DNA from: a phage
DNA: 44,706 bases
Direction: 5' to 3' (one strand)
Assembly: GCA_021454005.1 (NCBI GenBank)
Contig: GCA_021454005.1_3939.1
Positions 21,301-44,706 of the stretch are shown one piece after another. The first letter of the stretch is position 1. Every line of letters starts with the position of its first letter. The translations under genes were made by a program, and so were the position numbers. Below the pieces are notes generated by a model, which was given only the letters and a program-made list of their open reading frames with translations, did no database searches and had not been told where the DNA came from.

Positions 21301-21600
21301 TTAATCTGCCAACCTTAAATTGAAATTAACACCAAATTTTTCACATACTTCCAACATATACTCAAGGGAGACGTTACCAGTGAGATGGATTATGTTGGAT
21401 ACACGAGCCTGAGAGATACCACAAATTTTAGCAACTTGCTCTTGAGAAAGACCTCTGGATTTAATCTCTCTCTTAAAACGATGTGCAACGAAATCTCTCA
21501 TTTCATCTACATCCATTGGACAAATATAACTCTCCATTTCAGCCTCTCTATCAGCCTCCCAATCATCTTGTGGGGCATAAGGGTCAAAAGCCTCATTCAT
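21301..21600 (-). CDS. putative helix-turn-helix DNA-binding protein
   Basis: HTH-like segment LSQEQVAKICGISQARVSNIIH preceded by acidic N-terminus; start taken at ATG 21600, overlapping upstream stop (ATGAATGA). Confidence 0.4.
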   Translation of the reverse strand: MNEAFDPYAPQDDWEADREAEMESYICPMDVDEMRDFVAHRFKREIKSRGLSQEQVAKICGISQARVSNIIHLTGNVSLEYMLEVCEKFGVNFNLRLAD

Positions 21601-21805
21601 CTTTCTTCTTCCGTTTGCGTGAAGTGTCAATCAATGAATCTATGTTTGTAGCCCTAACCTTTTCACGTTCATCGTTAAGATAATCATCAAGAGCCTTTTC
21701 AATCTGTGAATCATCTTGACAGATAACTGTAAAGACTGTAAAGCCATCTGTATCGTCAATTATCTTACCATAACCGCTTCTGGGATGTAACTTTTTAAGA
21801 GCCAT
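21593..21805 (-). CDS. hypothetical small protein
   Basis: 70 aa ORF with basic C-terminus (RKRKKKDE), coupled to downstream HTH gene. Confidence 0.3.
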   Translation of the reverse strand: MALKKLHPRSGYGKIIDDTDGFTVFTVICQDDSQIEKALDDYLNDEREKVRATNIDSLIDTSRKRKKKDE

Positions 21806-22190: not shown

Positions 22191-22234
22191 AATGACCTCA
22201 AAGTTATATTAAATTTTGTATTACATTGAGTATA

Positions 22235-22263
22235 AAAATAAGCTATAACACCTGACTTGTCAA
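22235..22263 (-). promoter_or_regulatory. sigma70-like promoter for signal-peptide gene
   Basis: On - strand: TTGACA (22258-22263), 17 nt spacer, TATTTT (22235-22240); -35 extends as TTGACAAG..GGTG. Confidence 0.35.
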
Positions 22264-22282
22264 CAGACTTTATAGCTTATTT

Positions 22283-22656
22283 GGCAGATTTTTTATAAGG
22301 CTACTGCCATCCTTCCATACCCTACCTTACCACACCTAACCATACCTAACCAAACTACACCATACAATACCTTATTAAAAGACCCTCTTAAAGACCTTTT
22401 AAAAAGGTAAGTCTCATTTTAATGTAGCTGAGACTAACTACCCACACCTTACCTCACCTGACCTGACCTGACCATACCTAGCATTACCGTGCCACACCTC
22501 ACTTAAAAACCCTCTTAGAAGACTCTTAAGTGATGTAATCGGATTTTAATGTAGCTCCGATTAACTACCCGCACTTTACCAAACCTCACCCTACCCTACC
22601 AGACCTTACCTAACCGCGCCGTACCTCATTAAAAGACCCTCTTAAAGACCTTTTAA
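22283..22656. repeat. intergenic modular repeat array A (3 units)
   Basis: Hairpins at 22283-22308, 22410-22435, 22536-22563; G-depleted tracts at 22309-22374, 22436-22499, 22564-22628; second hairpin family at 22375-22402, 22500-22532, 22629-22656. Confidence 0.7.
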
Positions 22657-22678
22657 AAAGGAGCCTCCGAAGAGGCTA
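22651..22678 (-). terminator. rho-independent terminator (UUCG tetraloop) after 146-aa gene
   Basis: On - strand: AGCCTC-TTCG-GAGGCT followed by CC TTTTT; 10 nt after stop of gene 22689..23129. Confidence 0.5.
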
Positions 22679-22688
22679 CCTAGTCAAC

Positions 22689-23131: not shown

Positions 23132-23737
<606 letters not shown>

Positions 23738-23760
23738 TTAGTTGATTGTTAAGTTGTTTG

Positions 23761-24098
23761 TAAAGAACCCTCAATAGAAGACTCTTTAGAAACTTGGTAG
23801 ATTTTTAACGTGGCTACTACCATCCACCCACACTTTGCCATACCTCACCGCGCCTTACCCGACCGGGCTGCACCTTGCCTTGCCAAACATCACTTAAAAA
23901 CCCTATGAGATACCCTATCGAGTATAATTTAAAGGCTCTTAAGTGATGTAAGTCTCATTTTAATGTAGCTGAGACTAACTACCCATACCCTACTTTACCT
24001 TGCCGTACCGTACTTTACCCGACCACACCGGACAATACTTAACCCTACCTCACCCGACCGGACATCACTTAAAAACCCTCTTAGAAGACTCTTAAGTG
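23761..24098. repeat. intergenic modular repeat array B (2-3 units)
   Basis: Second-family hairpins at 23761-23788, 23891-23945, 24066-24098; first-family hairpins at 23796-23821, 23951-23976; G-depleted tracts at 23822-23890, 23977-24065. 24066-24098 equals 22500-22532; 23951-23976 equals 22410-22435. Confidence 0.7.
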
Positions 24099-24131
24099 AT
24101 GCTGGTGAGTACCCGTTGGTCTATGCTGCTC

Positions 24132-24159
24132 AGTATACTCACCAAATTTTCTATGTCAA
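24132..24159 (-). promoter_or_regulatory. sigma70-like promoter firing into repeat array B
   Basis: On - strand: TTGACA (24154-24159), 16 nt spacer, TATACT (24132-24137), just downstream of ligase stop; overlaps inverted repeat GGTGAGTA/TACTCACC (24104-24141). Confidence 0.35.
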
Positions 24160-24165
24160 CAACTT

Positions 24166-26363: not shown

Positions 26364-26569
26364 AGCAAATTCTCGATGTCTACACGTTCACCTTTTAAGT
26401 ACCCTGTCTTATCTTTTGCGATTTTCCCTCCAGCAATAAAGATATCTGCTATACGCAGAGCTTCAGGGTTTACTCTATAACCACTGCAAATAACAATAAG
26501 CATGTCTTCAATCTCTTTTTGAGAATAACCTGCACATTGCAACTGAACTTCAATCTCTGAAAGCGTCAT
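26360..26569 (-). CDS. small protein, paralog of 25939..26172
   Basis: 69 aa; shared C-terminal motif; RBS AGGAGG; conserved TTGACAAGGTG box upstream. Confidence 0.4.
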   Translation of the reverse strand: MTLSEIEVQLQCAGYSQKEIEDMLIVICSGYRVNPEALRIADIFIAGGKIAKDKTGYLKGERVDIENLL

Positions 26570-26630
26570 GTGACCTCCTATACAAGATACAGTATAAGGT
26601 ACTCTTCCATGAGCACCTTGTCAATACTAA

Positions 26631-29330
26631 TTAGTGAACCTCAAGCCAGCTTTTACCAACCTTACCAGTACCTGTAACAAGTGTTTCTTTCTTAAGACCT
26701 AAGTTCTTAGAAGCTTGTCCATAATACCAGTCAGTAACCGCTTTCACCTCTGCCGTCATGCTTTCTGGACATTCCCAACTCGTCTCATCGTGATATGCGC
26801 AGAGTAAACGAGCACCAATAGCTGGTTTGCGACCATTCAACTTCATCAAGCCTTCGTCAATCATACGACGACAAGCAAGGTTAATCGCCTCATTTTGAAT
26901 CTGAGCCTCTGAACCCATCAAAAGATAGTTCAATAATTTGTGTGGAGATTTACACCACAACCAAGCTCCAGCAACCTTTACAAAACCACCTTTAGAGATT
27001 GCAGCAGTCTTACCAAATACCTCTTCAAGTGCCTTTTTAGTTGCTTTGTAGTCAGCTTCCAAGTCATCTAGCAGCTTTTTAATTTTAGGCAAACGAATAA
27101 AGTAAGTCTGTTTAGTCAGCGCACCTTCCTGAGTAGTTGCAGCTTTAATCGTCTTAGCAAACTTCTCATCACCTGCACCGAACAGCAGTGCATAGATACC
27201 ATTCTTAGCTTTCTTACGACCCTTGCTAATCTCATGAAGAAGATTCTCATCCTGAGTAGCTCGACAAGTCAAGATGTCCTGCTCATCGTTCAAGTTAAAG
27301 TAAATACTGTTCAGTGTATGTGCATCAGTCCCTGAATAGACAACGTACAGGTCATTCTCAGAGTCATAGCGAAGGTACTTATCAATCTCTGGGTTAAGGT
27401 ACTCATCAAAGTGTTTACAGTAATAGCGTCCATCTTCTTGACGAATGAACTCAATTTCTTCTTTACCTTGCGTTACCGCTTTGGTGAAGTCTTTATCACC
27501 CATAAAGTTACAAAGAAGAACTAGCTGGGCTGAGTTCATGTCTACAGAGACAACGTTAGTACCTTCCTCACAAATCCACACTGCCCTCATTGGTTCCCCA
27601 TAGACAGCAGCACCAGACGGTACGTTTACAATACCATACTGTGTCATACGTCCAGTTGAAGTACCAAACACCATTGCACCAGCACTAAGGCGACCATCAG
27701 GACGAATCTGGTTCAACCAACCTTTTTCATCATCCTTTGAGTTCTCAATAGTTCTGCGTCGGTGCATCAAAGTGTAGTATTTAGCAATCTTCTGTCCAAG
27801 CTCACCTTCAATCGTATCGTAAGATGATTCAGTAAGTTTTGGTGAAGTACGGATTAAGCAAGGCTCAAGCAAATCTGTGTACTTCTTCACAGACCAGTTA
27901 TGCTCAATGTACTGGACGCCTTCGTGTTCAACATAACTCAAACCACACCGCTCAACCATTTCCTGCCACTTAGGATGCTTTGTAATCATCTTTTTATTGT
28001 CTTTGAAACGACAAACTTTGACAGGGCGACCATCAGAGTCTTTCTTGTAGTTCCAGTCATCTGGAATCCAACCAACTGATTTCAAGTAGTCTTTAACAAC
28101 TGCTACCTGAGTCATACGAGAAACTTCAAACTCAATTGGTGTATATGGTGCATCAATCAAACCTGTGTAGCGACTTGACTCAAGTTCAAAGTGGTTAACA
28201 ACGTGGCTGTTATAGTACTTCACAGTTTTGACTGTTTTTACTGGCTTCCAGTCTTTGCATTTCTTGCCAATCTTTGCGTTCAACTCATTGCAAATTGCAC
28301 GAGCATCCTTCATTGCTACAAAGCCTTCCTTGTACTCTTCACCAGTTACAGTGTTGGTTGGTGTATAGCAATTCCTTTTTTCAATGTTAAAAATCTTTGT
28401 AGTTGGCTTACCAAATGGTTTGATTTCGTATGTCTGCATCTCGCCATTACGTACCTGCTGACGATACTTTGTCTTAGGGTACTTGGTAATTCTTTTCAGT
28501 CCATCTGCATGACCAAATGTTTCAACATACTCATTCCAAGCTTTTGCAAACTCTTCTCCAGTGACTTTACCTTTGGTCTTAATAGTTGGAGGTAGATGTG
28601 GTTCAACCTCTGAAGCAAGCTCATTAGTCAACTTGTCAAGTTCCTTTACATGGAACTCCATAAGCTCTTTATCAGCTTTCCAACCATTGATAGCTTGTTG
28701 ACTCATCCAGAAAGATGTTTCTTTAGCTCGCATGTAGGTTTCATAAGTGTCTATGCCACACTTCTTAAGCTTGAGATACTCATTATCAAGTGCCCGTTTA
28801 GTTTTGGCGTTAATACGGATATCTTCTACAACACGAGTGAAGATTTCTGCATTCCACACACCCCAATGTTCAATCTCTGGTTTACGAACACCGACACGAG
28901 CACCCCATGCAGCCAAACCATGAGCACCTTTATAACCCTTTGGAGTTGGTCTATCCATCCACTGAACACGAGACTGGATAAGAGAATCCTGAAAGAAATT
29001 ACTCCACGGTTTACACTTTGGATTATCAAAGTTCCATAAATCGGGTGCAATGTGATTGAAAACCCACCAGTCATAACCAAGACCATTATGAATGCAAAGA
29101 CGTTTTGCCTTTAACGCAAATTCAATACCTTCACGTAAGCCACCCTTAATGTACTTGGTATACTTGTGACCGAGGATAGGCTCATCTGTAAAGACCCATA
29201 CAGGTGGCTCTTCATCGTCAGATTTATAGTCTGCGAAAGCCATTACGTGCACTTTAGTGAACTCAAGGAGTAAACCATCAGTTTCTGTATCACCAACTAA
29301 ATGTAAGTTTTTAAAATCTACGTTTTCCAT
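26631..29330 (-). CDS. DNA polymerase, family A (T7-like)
   Basis: Exo motif GDTETDGL; Pol A motif B RKKAKNGIYALLFGAG; motif C YHDE; start set at ATG 29330 with RBS GAGGGAG. Confidence 0.85.
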   Translation of the reverse strand: MENVDFKNLHLVGDTETDGLLLEFTKVHVMAFADYKSDDEEPPVWVFTDEPILGHKYTKYIKGGLREGIEFALKAKRLCIHNGLGYDWWVFNHIAPDLWNFDNPKCKPWSNFFQDSLIQSRVQWMDRPTPKGYKGAHGLAAWGARVGVRKPEIEHWGVWNAEIFTRVVEDIRINAKTKRALDNEYLKLKKCGIDTYETYMRAKETSFWMSQQAINGWKADKELMEFHVKELDKLTNELASEVEPHLPPTIKTKGKVTGEEFAKAWNEYVETFGHADGLKRITKYPKTKYRQQVRNGEMQTYEIKPFGKPTTKIFNIEKRNCYTPTNTVTGEEYKEGFVAMKDARAICNELNAKIGKKCKDWKPVKTVKTVKYYNSHVVNHFELESSRYTGLIDAPYTPIEFEVSRMTQVAVVKDYLKSVGWIPDDWNYKKDSDGRPVKVCRFKDNKKMITKHPKWQEMVERCGLSYVEHEGVQYIEHNWSVKKYTDLLEPCLIRTSPKLTESSYDTIEGELGQKIAKYYTLMHRRRTIENSKDDEKGWLNQIRPDGRLSAGAMVFGTSTGRMTQYGIVNVPSGAAVYGEPMRAVWICEEGTNVVSVDMNSAQLVLLCNFMGDKDFTKAVTQGKEEIEFIRQEDGRYYCKHFDEYLNPEIDKYLRYDSENDLYVVYSGTDAHTLNSIYFNLNDEQDILTCRATQDENLLHEISKGRKKAKNGIYALLFGAGDEKFAKTIKAATTQEGALTKQTYFIRLPKIKKLLDDLEADYKATKKALEEVFGKTAAISKGGFVKVAGAWLWCKSPHKLLNYLLMGSEAQIQNEAINLACRRMIDEGLMKLNGRKPAIGARLLCAYHDETSWECPESMTAEVKAVTDWYYGQASKNLGLKKETLVTGTGKVGKSWLEVH

Positions 29331-29376
29331 TTTTACTCCCTCTAAAATCATTAACCTCATACATTACTGCAAAAAA

Positions 29377-29382
29377 TTATAA
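29377..29382 (-). promoter_or_regulatory. candidate -10 (TATAAT) for DNA polymerase gene
   Basis: Perfect TATAAT on - strand about 47 nt upstream of the pol start; no well-spaced -35. Confidence 0.25.
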
Positions 29383-29526
29383 AAAGCAAGTTGACAATGC
29401 ACTTGACAAGGTGCTAATCTTTGCGAAGTGGGTTTTTACTTAAAAGGTTACTTAACAGTTTAACTATACAGATACTTTAAAACTCTTAAAAGATTATTTA
29501 ATAGCTTTTAAAAAGCTTTAAAGTAT

Positions 29527-42525: not shown

Positions 42526-44670
42526 ATGAACAAAGTACAGATTATTAAAAAGAATGGCTCACTTGAAGAACCTGATATCAAAAAAGTTTTAGCAGCAGTC
42601 ACAAAGTCAGCTAACAGAGTTGGTTATAAAGAGCTTCCACCAGATGTTACTCAAGCTCTTGAGTCAGCATTTATGAGGATTCTGGTAAAGTCCACTAAGC
42701 AGAATAATTTGCTAATTTCGGTAAATGATATTCACAGTATTGTTGAGGGTGCTTTGGCAGAAGTCAATCACGAGATTTATGAGTCTTACTCAACATATAG
42801 AAATTACCGTAAAGAGGTTGCTCAAAATTGGGATGAACTCTACCAGAAGACTAAAGATACACTCTTCTTAGGTGACCGAGAAAACGCTAATTTTGACAGC
42901 AGTTTAATTTCTACAAAAGGTTCAATTATTCGTGGTTATCTGACTAAAGAAATCTTTAAACAGTACCATTTAACACCAGAGGAACTTGAAGCCATTGAAA
43001 AAGGGTTTATCTACATCCATGATTTAAGAGACCTAATTTTTGGTGGTATCAACTGTTGCCTGTTTGACATTGGTAAAGTCCTGAAAGGTGGCTTTGAAAT
43101 GTCTGGCATCGAATATTGTGAACCGAAGTCTGTACTGTCAGCCTTACAGGTTATTGGTGATGTAGTTCTTTCAGCAACTGCACAGCAATTTGGTGGCTTT
43201 ACTTTAGCAGAGATTGATAAGGTACTTGTACCGTATGCTAAGAAGTCTCTACACTATCATGCTGAGAAAGCAGCATCTTATGGTATTCCTAAAGAACATT
43301 ACCACAATTATGTCATGGAGCAGCTACAGATTGAACTGACTCAGGGTTTCCAGTCACTTGAAATGAAACTAAACACTGTACCTTGTAGTCGTGGGGATTT
43401 TGCATTCACAACTTTGACATTCGGGTTACTTGACTCAGATATGTCCAATGAAGATAACCGACTGCAATACATGATTGCAAGTACTCTCCTAGATGTTCGT
43501 ATGAATGGACAAGGTAAGAGCAAGAAGCCTGTTGTATTCCCTAAACTGGTTTATATTTATGACCAGAAGAGACACGATGAGAATATCTGTCAAGGCCACC
43601 TGTACAGTAAAGCTATTGAGTGTTGCTCTAAAGCAATGTATCCAGACTTCTTAAGTGTATCTGGTCATGGTGCTGTAGCAGAGGCTTTTGAGCGTTCTGG
43701 TAAGGTTATTTCACCAATGGGTTGCAGAGCTTTCTTGTCTCCATATCTTAATGAGGATGGGGAAGAGTTCTACGTTGGTCGTGCTAACATTGGTGCTGTA
43801 TCTTTGAACTTACCAATGATTTACCAGTATTCTAAAGAGAATGGATTAGACTTCTGGACAGAACTTGATAAATATCTCGAAATGATTCGTAGCTTCCATA
43901 AGAAACGCTACGAAATGATTGCTAATATGCCAGCAAGTTCTAACCCTCTTGCATTCACACAAGGTGGTCTGTACAAAGGAACTAAGAAACCTACTGACAA
44001 GGTTGGTTGGGATATTGTGAAGTCCTTCACAGCTTCTTTTGGTGTTACTGCGCTTGATGAGTTGTCTGTTCTTGCTGAAGGTAAACGACTTCATGAAGTT
44101 GGAAGCTATAGTTTTGCATATGATGTTCTGGCATACATCAACATGAAAACCGAAGAGTTTAAAAATGAAGATGGCTTCTTATATGCCGTCTATGGTACTC
44201 CAGCAGAATCACTATGTGGGACTCAGCTAAAACAGTTCAGAGATATGTTTGGGGTTATCAAAGGTGTTTCCGATAAGGAATACTTTACAAACAGTTTCCA
44301 TATGAATGTTGCAGCAGACATCTCGCCATTTGAGAAGCAGGACTTAGAAGAGCGATTCTTCCATATCTGTAGAGGCGGTAGAATCCAGTATGTAAGAGTA
44401 GCTAACCCAGAAAACTTAACAGCACTTAAAAGTTGTATTACAAGAGGGATGTTGAAAGGTTTCTATCAGGGGCTTAACTTTGACTTAGCAATCTGTGAAC
44501 ATTGTGGTAACAGACCAAAGGCTGATGTTGAAGAATGTGAGGTTTGCCATTCACATGATATCTCTGTGATTAACAGGGTGTGTGGGTATCTTGGATGGAC
44601 TAAGATTAAAGGTGAATCCCGAATGAACGATGCAAAAATCGCTGAGATTCGTGATAGAGTCTCTATGTAA
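42526..44670 (+). CDS. nrdD: anaerobic ribonucleotide reductase class III
   Basis: C-terminal glycyl-radical motif RVCGYLG preceded by Cys cluster CEHCGN...CEVCHSH; N-terminal ATP-cone-like segment; 714 aa. Confidence 0.85.
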   Translation: MNKVQIIKKNGSLEEPDIKKVLAAVTKSANRVGYKELPPDVTQALESAFMRILVKSTKQNNLLISVNDIHSIVEGALAEVNHEIYESYSTYRNYRKEVAQNWDELYQKTKDTLFLGDRENANFDSSLISTKGSIIRGYLTKEIFKQYHLTPEELEAIEKGFIYIHDLRDLIFGGINCCLFDIGKVLKGGFEMSGIEYCEPKSVLSALQVIGDVVLSATAQQFGGFTLAEIDKVLVPYAKKSLHYHAEKAASYGIPKEHYHNYVMEQLQIELTQGFQSLEMKLNTVPCSRGDFAFTTLTFGLLDSDMSNEDNRLQYMIASTLLDVRMNGQGKSKKPVVFPKLVYIYDQKRHDENICQGHLYSKAIECCSKAMYPDFLSVSGHGAVAEAFERSGKVISPMGCRAFLSPYLNEDGEEFYVGRANIGAVSLNLPMIYQYSKENGLDFWTELDKYLEMIRSFHKKRYEMIANMPASSNPLAFTQGGLYKGTKKPTDKVGWDIVKSFTASFGVTALDELSVLAEGKRLHEVGSYSFAYDVLAYINMKTEEFKNEDGFLYAVYGTPAESLCGTQLKQFRDMFGVIKGVSDKEYFTNSFHMNVAADISPFEKQDLEERFFHICRGGRIQYVRVANPENLTALKSCITRGMLKGFYQGLNFDLAICEHCGNRPKADVEECEVCHSHDISVINRVCGYLGWTKIKGESRMNDAKIAEIRDRVSM

Positions 44671-44672
44671 AA

Positions 44673-44684
44673 CTTGACAAGGTG
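44673..44684 (+). promoter_or_regulatory. conserved CTTGACAAGGTG box after nrdD
   Basis: Same 12-mer as 29402-29413 (+) and 26615-26626 (- strand); contains TTGACA; downstream gene is outside the window. Confidence 0.35.
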
Positions 44685-44706
44685 ATGTGGGTCTTGATAG
44701 GCTTAC

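Follow-up and report, generated by a model that had tools for sequence, protein, structure and literature searches.

A recurrent TTGACA-containing box in Felix O1-like phages as the probable -35 region of host sigma-70 promoters

A short sequence, the 11-mer TTGACAAGGTG, recurs in the intergenic DNA of Felix O1-like phages, where its setting suggests that it is probably the -35 region of early or internal promoters read by the sigma-70 RNA polymerase of the host. We studied this box in a window of 44,706 nucleotides, the whole stretch of phage DNA that was analysed. The window derives from a phage of the Felix O1 type (Felixounavirus): across 4 kb around the box it is 95-97% identical to many Felixounavirus genomes, and the best match is Felixounavirus LF110P2 (96.9% identity over these 4 kb). 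The Felix O1-like relatives of the window are myoviruses of E. coli, Salmonella and Shigella, widely used in Salmonella typing and biocontrol. Since the phage is Felix O1-like, the host polymerase is taken to be an E. coli-type sigma-70 holoenzyme. Neither an RNA polymerase nor any known polymerase-modifying protein is encoded by Felix O1, according to its genome paper (Whichard et al. 2010, PMC3185647), which also states that the timing of Felix O1 transcription and the passage through its many terminators are unknown. We found no mapped transcription starts and no polymerase-binding data for Felix O1-like phages in the searchable literature, and no relevant paper on the 11-mer as such; the BPROM promoter table of phage UAB_Phi87 gives hexamers only. 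Transcription starts, polymerase binding and termination at the box sites are what we infer from sequence. No known RNA families or tRNAs were found in the window.

Recurrence and promoter-like features of the box

The preliminary description of this DNA had placed an exact 12-mer at three sites. Two of these stand: CTTGACAAGGTG occurs at 29402-29413 (+) and 44673-44684 (+), the only two copies in the window, and no copy appeared in any shuffled sequence. The third site, ATTGACAAGGTG at 26625-26614 (-), has one mismatch to the 12-mer, and its coordinates had been off by 1 nt. What all three share is the 11-mer TTGACAAGGTG, with three copies in the window against 0.07 expected and three copies reached in none of 100 shuffles. 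The C that precedes it in the 12-mer is not conserved: the polymerase site can have A, G or C there, and the nrdD site, in other genera, G or A. By itself, TTGACA shows no enrichment in the window (47 observed versus 49 expected).

Whole-genome checks were made on LF110P2 (complete, 87,144 bp) and Felix O1, and box position and orientation were determined in three complete genomes. LF110P2 contains four exact copies of TTGACAAGGTG, namely the three of the window, which we call sites A (after the DNA polymerase gene), B (between the divergent polymerase and replication genes) and C (after nrdD), and a fourth, site D, outside the window. In Felix O1, three copies are exact and site D reads TTGACAAGGTA. 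In LF110P2, AGGTG directly follows TTGACA in 4 of 108 cases (binomial P ~1e-5); together with the shuffles, this rules out chance recurrence, so that the earlier judgement that the repeats are unlikely to be accidental holds for the 11-mer. The tabulation against gene starts that had been proposed as a check came out in favour of the box: all four exact copies in LF110P2 and all three in Felix O1 are non-coding and oriented toward the next gene, at roughly 50-180 nt from its start codon. The intergenic share of the genome is about 10%, counted as DNA not covered by a crude gene call or unannotated in the records.

The features expected of a sigma-70 promoter are largely present, in line with the earlier suggestion of promoter DNA. 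The -35 hexamer TTGACA is perfect (6/6) at all copies, lies in non-coding DNA upstream of a gene read in the same direction, and is conserved together with a TAnnnT -10 at 17-18 bp; both hexamers are kept as other positions drift. The candidate -10 hexamers in the window are TACCTT (N17) at site A, TAATCT (N18, counted from an upstream TTGACA) at site B and TAGGCT (N18) at site C. All four -10 hexamers, including that of site D, match TATAAT at only 3/6 positions, and a stricter consensus promoter scan did not call sites A, B or C. Compared with E. coli sigma-70 promoters of the kind that early genes of lytic coliphages use, including those of the extended -10 class, the box sites thus share TTGACA, a 17-18 bp spacer and the T1, A2 and T6 of the -10; sites B and C also share the extended -10 (TGn), and site B the upstream A-tract. 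They differ in their 3/6 -10 hexamers, in the five identical extra bases past the -35 at four sites, and in a second conserved TTGACA within the spacer at sites B and D. We know of no base-specific sigma-70 contact to the five bases after the -35.

Several other readings of the box were considered and rejected. MotA boxes of T4-type middle promoters have the consensus (a/t)(a/t)(a/t)TGCTTtA, centred at -30, replace the -35 hexamer and need phage motA and asiA; the box is a perfect -35 hexamer instead. A Shine-Dalgarno sequence (AAGGUG) for a small ORF does not fit either: many relatives have AGG in place of the ATG at site A, site B lacks a start codon, and at site C relatives have GTG-TGA directly after the box. 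In an informal comparison, none of the consensus sites of host transcription factors (FNR, PhoB, CRP, IHF, DnaA and others) fits the box. It had also been described as a possible UP-like element. UP elements are A+T-rich tracts at -40 to -60, and the box, at about -36 to -25, is not one; the A-tract AAAAAG upstream of the first TTGACA at site B is a separate element.

Sites after the DNA polymerase and nrdD genes

At site A, the box (26614..26624, -) starts 7 nt past the stop codon of the DNA polymerase gene, with its proposed -35 TTGACA at 26624-26619. The proposed -10, TACCTT (26596..26601, -), follows 17 nt past TTGACA and matches the consensus at 3/6 positions, A2 and T6 among them. Transcription is predicted to start near 26589 (-), ahead of the ATG of the downstream gene at 26569, and TTGACA-N17-TACCTT would act as an internal promoter for the small genes downstream. 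Among 28 close relatives, which were fetched through homology of the polymerase protein and not through the motif, 27 keep TTGACAAGGTG and the remaining one has TTGACAGGGTG. Many relatives have an insertion of ~500 bp between the polymerase gene and the box that replaces everything 5' of TTGACA. Despite this insertion they retain TTGACAAGGTGCTCA[T/G]GGAAGAGTACC[T/A]T, with TACCTT or TACCAT as the -10. The preliminary description had reported a spacing of 17 to 22 nt, a variability that disappears once the -10 is corrected: TATACT at N22 is TATACA in many relatives, without the essential final T, and it is TACCTT at N17 that keeps the key T, A and T.

More distant relatives allow the promoter hexamers and the tail of the box to be told apart. 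PMBT37 and the IMG/VR locus L029, which belong to a different genus (63-64% polymerase identity), have TTGACA-N17-TATCTT right after the polymerase gene. The tail after that TTGACA is TGATG, not AGGTG, and TTGACAAGGTG is absent anywhere in these sequences.

Site A also contains a hairpin, AAGGUGCUC-AUGGAA-GAGUACCUU (26596..26619, -; 9 bp, -13.8 kcal/mol, z -2.9), which fills the promoter spacer and overlaps the -10, with no U-run. One common polymorphism (T/G) falls in the loop, and there is no compensatory change; as a conserved element the hairpin has moderate standing. The orthologous site in PMBT37 likewise has a hairpin in its spacer, of 8 bp, which is not significant alone (z -1.2).

At site C, CTTGACAAGGTG (44673..44684, +) starts 3 nt past the nrdD stop codon, with the proposed -35 TTGACA at 44674-44679. 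This hexamer is kept in 17 of 18 distinct ortholog sequences, the other being TTGACG. An overlapping stretch (44679..44706, +) forms the 5' arm and loop of a hairpin with AAGGTG as the stem base; its 3' arm and U-run lie past the window end. Relatives continue as AAGGTGATGTGGGTCTTGATAGGCTTACATCACCTTTTTTATT, a 16-bp hairpin (-24.1 kcal/mol, z -7.3), followed by the U-run UUUUUAUUU. The hairpin and U-run therefore point to an intrinsic terminator of nrdD, and a stable hairpin with a U-run just past a gene and compensatory pairing was found at site C only. Across 12 distinct orthologs, 98.4% of cells are paired. In two lineages the G that ends the box has become A and its partner C has become T, which turns a G-C into an A-U pair, and six further pairs change on one side only with pairing kept. 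This covariation shows that the constraint on AGGTG at site C is RNA pairing; at site A, it is probably RNA pairing as well. Box positions 7 (A7) and 10 (T10) vary too (TTGACATGGTG, TTGACAAGGCG).

Over this terminator lies a proposed extended -10, TGaTAGGCT (44695..44703, +), in the hairpin loop and 3' arm, with TAGGCT 18 nt past TTGACA and 3/6 matches. All 12 aligned orthologs share the loop TCTTGATAGGCTT without change, although stem positions differ, and the loop sequence TGATAGGCT is likewise invariant among them. TTGACA-N18-TGaTAGGCT may thus be a re-start promoter laid over the nrdD terminator. The record of phage wV8 (NC_012749.1, 82047-82078) annotates a Rho-independent terminator on the same stretch, covering the GGTG...CACC of site C; the overlapping -35 and extended -10 are not marked there. 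The hairpin is omitted from the Felix O1 terminator table (PMC3185647).

These hairpins raise the question of whether the recurring part is an RNA element only, in which AAGGUG would be the 5' base of hairpins for terminating or stabilising the upstream message, with TTGACA beside it by accident. The stability, U-run, covariation and wV8 annotation of the site C hairpin would fit, as would the site A hairpin with its variation confined to the loop, and similar hairpins follow TTGACA between rIIA and rIIB and at the Felix O1 terminator t42. We nevertheless regard this as improbable: the most invariant part, TTGAC, is not within the stems, and the invariance of TGATAGGCT at site C is not needed by a hairpin alone. 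Moreover, no stable conserved hairpin is present at sites B and D (-3.2 kcal/mol, z +2.0 at site D), and both head divergent units, where no upstream transcript is expected in that direction.

Some observations accompany these two sites. Promoter-like sites that overlap hairpins are also seen elsewhere, at positions 58100 and 81278 of LF110P2 (L004:14100 and L004:37278) and at 2298 and 23547-23575 of Felix O1. In the rIIA-rIIB gap a hairpin lies in the spacer after the -35 (TTGACAAGGGGCTTCAAAGCCCCTTAAAAT), and the published Felix O1 terminator t42 has TTGACA inside its hairpin and TAATAT after it. Superimposing terminator and promoter signals looks habitual in this family. The annotated starts of the small membrane-protein gene after nrdD, at 79310 in Felix O1 (ORF118) and 82060 in wV8 (gene 125), corresponding to ~44685 onward in the window, fall inside the terminator hairpin, and in several relatives the would-be first codon is directly followed by TGA. 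The true start is probably the ATG past the U-run, and the existing annotations look too long. Insertions directly 5' of the box occur in many relatives, both past the polymerase gene (~500 bp; an HNH endonuclease gene in Felix O1) and past nrdD. Their junctions lie at TTGACA or within ~10 nt of it (26625-26633 and 44668-44673 in the window; L008-L033, L046 and L058-L062 among relatives), and because they lie so near, the gaps with these putative promoters appear to be insertion hot spots.

Tandem TTGACA modules in divergent early regions

The gap with site B measures 227 bp and separates the DNA polymerase gene from the divergently oriented replication genes. No comparable promoter sequence was reported for the corresponding region of Felix O1, genes 96-97 (PMC3185647). 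Here the box CTTGACAAGGTG (29402..29413, +) is the second of two TTGACA copies 12 bp apart, and taken as a -35 its own TTGACA has no usable -10 at N15-19. The upstream TTGACA (29391..29396, +), preceded by the A-tract AAAAAATTATAAAAAG (29371-29386), is the proposed true -35 of a rightward early promoter. The proposed -10, TAATCT (29415..29420, +; 3/6 matches), lies 18 nt past it with TGc before, so that the box falls inside the spacer of this promoter, and the TG at the end of the box (29412-29413) would supply the extended -10 TG. Transcription is predicted to begin near 29427 (+), before the conserved AGTGGGTTTT. In 28 relatives, AAAAAGCAAGTTGACAA, CTTGACA[A/G]GGTG and TA[A/G]TCT are constant, whereas DNA further upstream diverges and four of the 6 nt that separate the two TTGACA copies vary. 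The -10 region reads TGtTAATCT, TGgTAGTCT or TGtTAGTCT in relatives, with TGn always kept. Site B would thus be the head of a rightward transcription unit, with the upstream TTGACA as its -35.

Two further candidates at site B were discarded. On the opposite strand the box could be the -35 (TTGTCA) of a promoter leading leftward into the polymerase gene; the one TATAAT present would give spacers of 10 and 22 nt and is not conserved. A longer palindrome around the box (GCACTTGACAAGGTGC at site B) is not conserved at sites A, C or D.

Site D is a paralog of site B, with the same A-tract, two TTGACAA copies and ACTTAAAAGGTT 24-25 nt further. Its upstream TTGACA is that of the published putative Felix O1 promoter P41, TTGACA-N15-TATAGG at 21515-21541 (Whichard et al. 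2010, PMC3185647); the second TTGACA and the 11-mer TTGACAAGGTG are not remarked on in that paper. We place the -10 of site D at TAGGCT (N17) instead of TATAGG, because TAnnnT persists in other genera: both TTGACAA copies and TAGGCT, TAGCCT or TAAGTT (TAnnnT at N17) are found across genera. Site D may likewise head a rightward transcription unit, with the upstream TTGACA as -35 and the box in the spacer. A T4-late-type sequence beside it, TATAAATA, was set aside, since other genera have TAATAAAA there. The tandem layout recurs, without AGGTG, in a third module, E (TTGACA-N7-TTGACATTGG-TAACTT), and modules B, D and E align over ~100 bp. PMBT37 has a tandem module as well, TTGACA-N6-TTGACAGGGGC-TAAAGT, whose second TTGACA lies 5 nt before TAAAGT. 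At sites B and D, all orthologs that extend over the region keep the second TTGACA, although this copy lacks a -10 of its own.

That the upstream TTGACA at sites B and D was chosen after the fact is a weak point of the promoter reading. In IMG/VR, at least 120 rows match the pattern AAAAAG-N3-4-TTGACA-N6-7-TTGACA. Among the matches listed, at least 20 rows are B or D modules of Ounavirinae, and at least 74 environmental viral contigs (L099-L218) share one module, ACCATAAAAAGTTGTTGACAAAGGGCTTGACAtgtgtTATAGT, whose first 18 nt are identical to site D. Also among the matches listed, TAnnnT lies exactly 5 nt past the second TTGACA, and hence 17 nt past the first, in 70 of these 74 contigs, which supports the upstream TTGACA as the -35. 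The pattern does not force this placement of TAnnnT; it does require both TTGACA copies, so their conservation in these contigs cannot be deduced from the scan. The one such contig that was checked, L175, has uvsY, uvsW and gp46/47-like neighbours and is thus from a T4-like phage; its module ACCATAAAAAGTTGTTGACAAAGGGCTTGACAtgtgtTATAGT (L175:6434-6480, -) points antisense into the end of a neighbouring gene. Several other unrelated contigs (L143, L144, L162 and L194) have the same tandem layout. By their sequence, these matches show a second TTGACA in the spacer to be a recurring design, in unrelated phages too.

The lambda CII sites offer a partial parallel, as they are TTGC-N6-TTGC direct repeats flanking a -35. 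The tandem modules resemble them, without being members of that class, in having a TTG-containing direct repeat about one helical turn apart in the -35 region. They differ in that the period is 12-13 bp instead of 10 and the repeat is the full -35 consensus.

Downstream of site B follow ~160 nt of A+T-rich untranslated DNA containing three copies of CTTAAAAG, and similar motifs follow modules D and E. This motif has 13 copies in the window (29439, 29485 and 29572 on the + strand and 10 elsewhere) against 3.25 expected, and none of 100 shuffles reached 13. One leader copy, ACTCTTAAAAG, is followed by the hairpin AGCTTTTAAAAAGCT and loosely recalls a lambda nut site with its boxA and boxB. Promoters combined with unwinding elements serve as replication origins in T4 (oriF, oriG) and T7. 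The tandem modules (B, and D and E elsewhere) with their long A+T-rich leaders might accordingly be read as origins of transcription-primed replication, and the repeats of CTTAAAAG as well as the place of site B, between divergent polymerase and replication genes at the minimum of the cumulative GC skew, would agree with that. The switch in skew coincides with the switch in transcription direction, though, which explains it equally well, and we consider a role as origins very unlikely.

The conserved AGGTG tail and a possible phage regulator

If the box sites are sigma-70 promoters, the identical AGGTG past the -35 still calls for an account. We suggest that this tail has no single common reader. 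At sites C and A it would form the base of the RNA hairpin with which the upstream gene ends, and at sites B and D it abuts the -10, its TG serving as the extended -10 TG at site B. Most likely, promoter modules were copied within the genome and the five nucleotides were then held by overlapping local constraints. Copying is proposed because modules B, D and E are clearly related and because Felix O1 has 39-bp direct repeats that begin with TTGACA (PMC3185647). Identical AGGTG at four sites with otherwise dissimilar flanks remains awkward for pure copying followed by drift.

Another account is that TTGACAAGGTG is an operator for a phage DNA-binding protein. Because the site overlaps the -35 or the spacer, a single factor could then switch a set of early promoters off or on. 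The candidate is a 109-aa Cro/C1-type helix-turn-helix (HTH) protein encoded in the window (21301-21630, -), an HTH_3 match (E = 6e-10) with weak, sub-threshold similarity to sigma-70 region 4, and the only obvious phage-encoded candidate regulator among ten proteins scanned. Its gene is the last of a three-gene run (22190-21301, -). Upstream of this run lies a close variant of the box, which the preliminary description had also read as a -35: TTGACAAGTCAGGTG at 22263-22249 (-) with TATTTT 17 nt downstream would give TTGACA-N17-TATTTT (22235..22263, -). The exact recurrence at four promoters (P ~1e-5), the weak -10 hexamers at all of them and the 4-1-4 palindrome CTTGaCAAG at sites B, C and D could all reflect such a regulator. 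So could the phylogenetic distribution: relatives of the HTH protein occur in 261 phage records, roughly coinciding with the 263 records that have a match to the box-bearing window DNA, and no relative is detectable in PMBT37, which also lacks the box. By record, 259 of the 261 are Felixounavirus and close kin, the other two being weak matches elsewhere. Many other genes likely have the same distribution, however, so that co-occurrence carries little weight.

The variation within the box argues against a common regulator site, which the preliminary description had also proposed. At site D, AGGTG is AGCTG or ACGTG in other genera and AGGTA in Felix O1, with TTGACA and the -10 kept. At site C, the last G changes along with its hairpin partner, and A7 and T10 vary too. 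The palindrome is the only dyad present; its leading C is missing at site A, where the dyad is broken, and at site C in other genera, and so the dyad expected of a Cro/C1-type operator was not found. Finally, module E has the tandem layout without AGGTG. An operator is therefore an unlikely explanation of the box. We are equally doubtful of the broader idea that TTGACAAGGTG, or the second TTGACA 12 bp past the true -35, is a dedicated control site that times early transcription; if it were, the HTH protein or a second contact of sigma region 4 would act there to time the early transcription of Felix O1-like phages.

Near the variant site, the window contains two long non-coding stretches (22191-22688 and 23720-24165, transcribed on the - strand) with five copies of a ~127-nt unit. 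Each unit consists of 11-13 consecutive GGTNN pentamers in strict period 5 with the hairpin GGGTAGTTAGTCTCAGCTACATTAAAATGAGACTTAC after them. These stretches gave neither a tRNA nor an Rfam match, and only part of the region is labelled, as a direct repeat, in the wV8 record. Transcription from a strong promoter-like site, TTGACA-N16-TATACT (24159-24132, -), would run into the second cluster. From their sequence, the period-5 GG arrays look like multi-site protein-binding RNA, and they seem odder than the TTGACA box itself.

Part of what is described here was already known, namely the site D module, published as the putative promoter P41, and the site C hairpin, which the wV8 record marks as a terminator. 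For Felix O1-like phages, the box sites supply testable promoter positions for the gap between the polymerase and replication genes and for two re-start points directly after long genes. Promoters and terminator hairpins would be superimposed in very short intergenic gaps, which makes for useful annotations and not for a new principle. Of wider interest is the conserved second TTGACA in the spacer of the strongest-looking promoters, in these phages and in unrelated ones.
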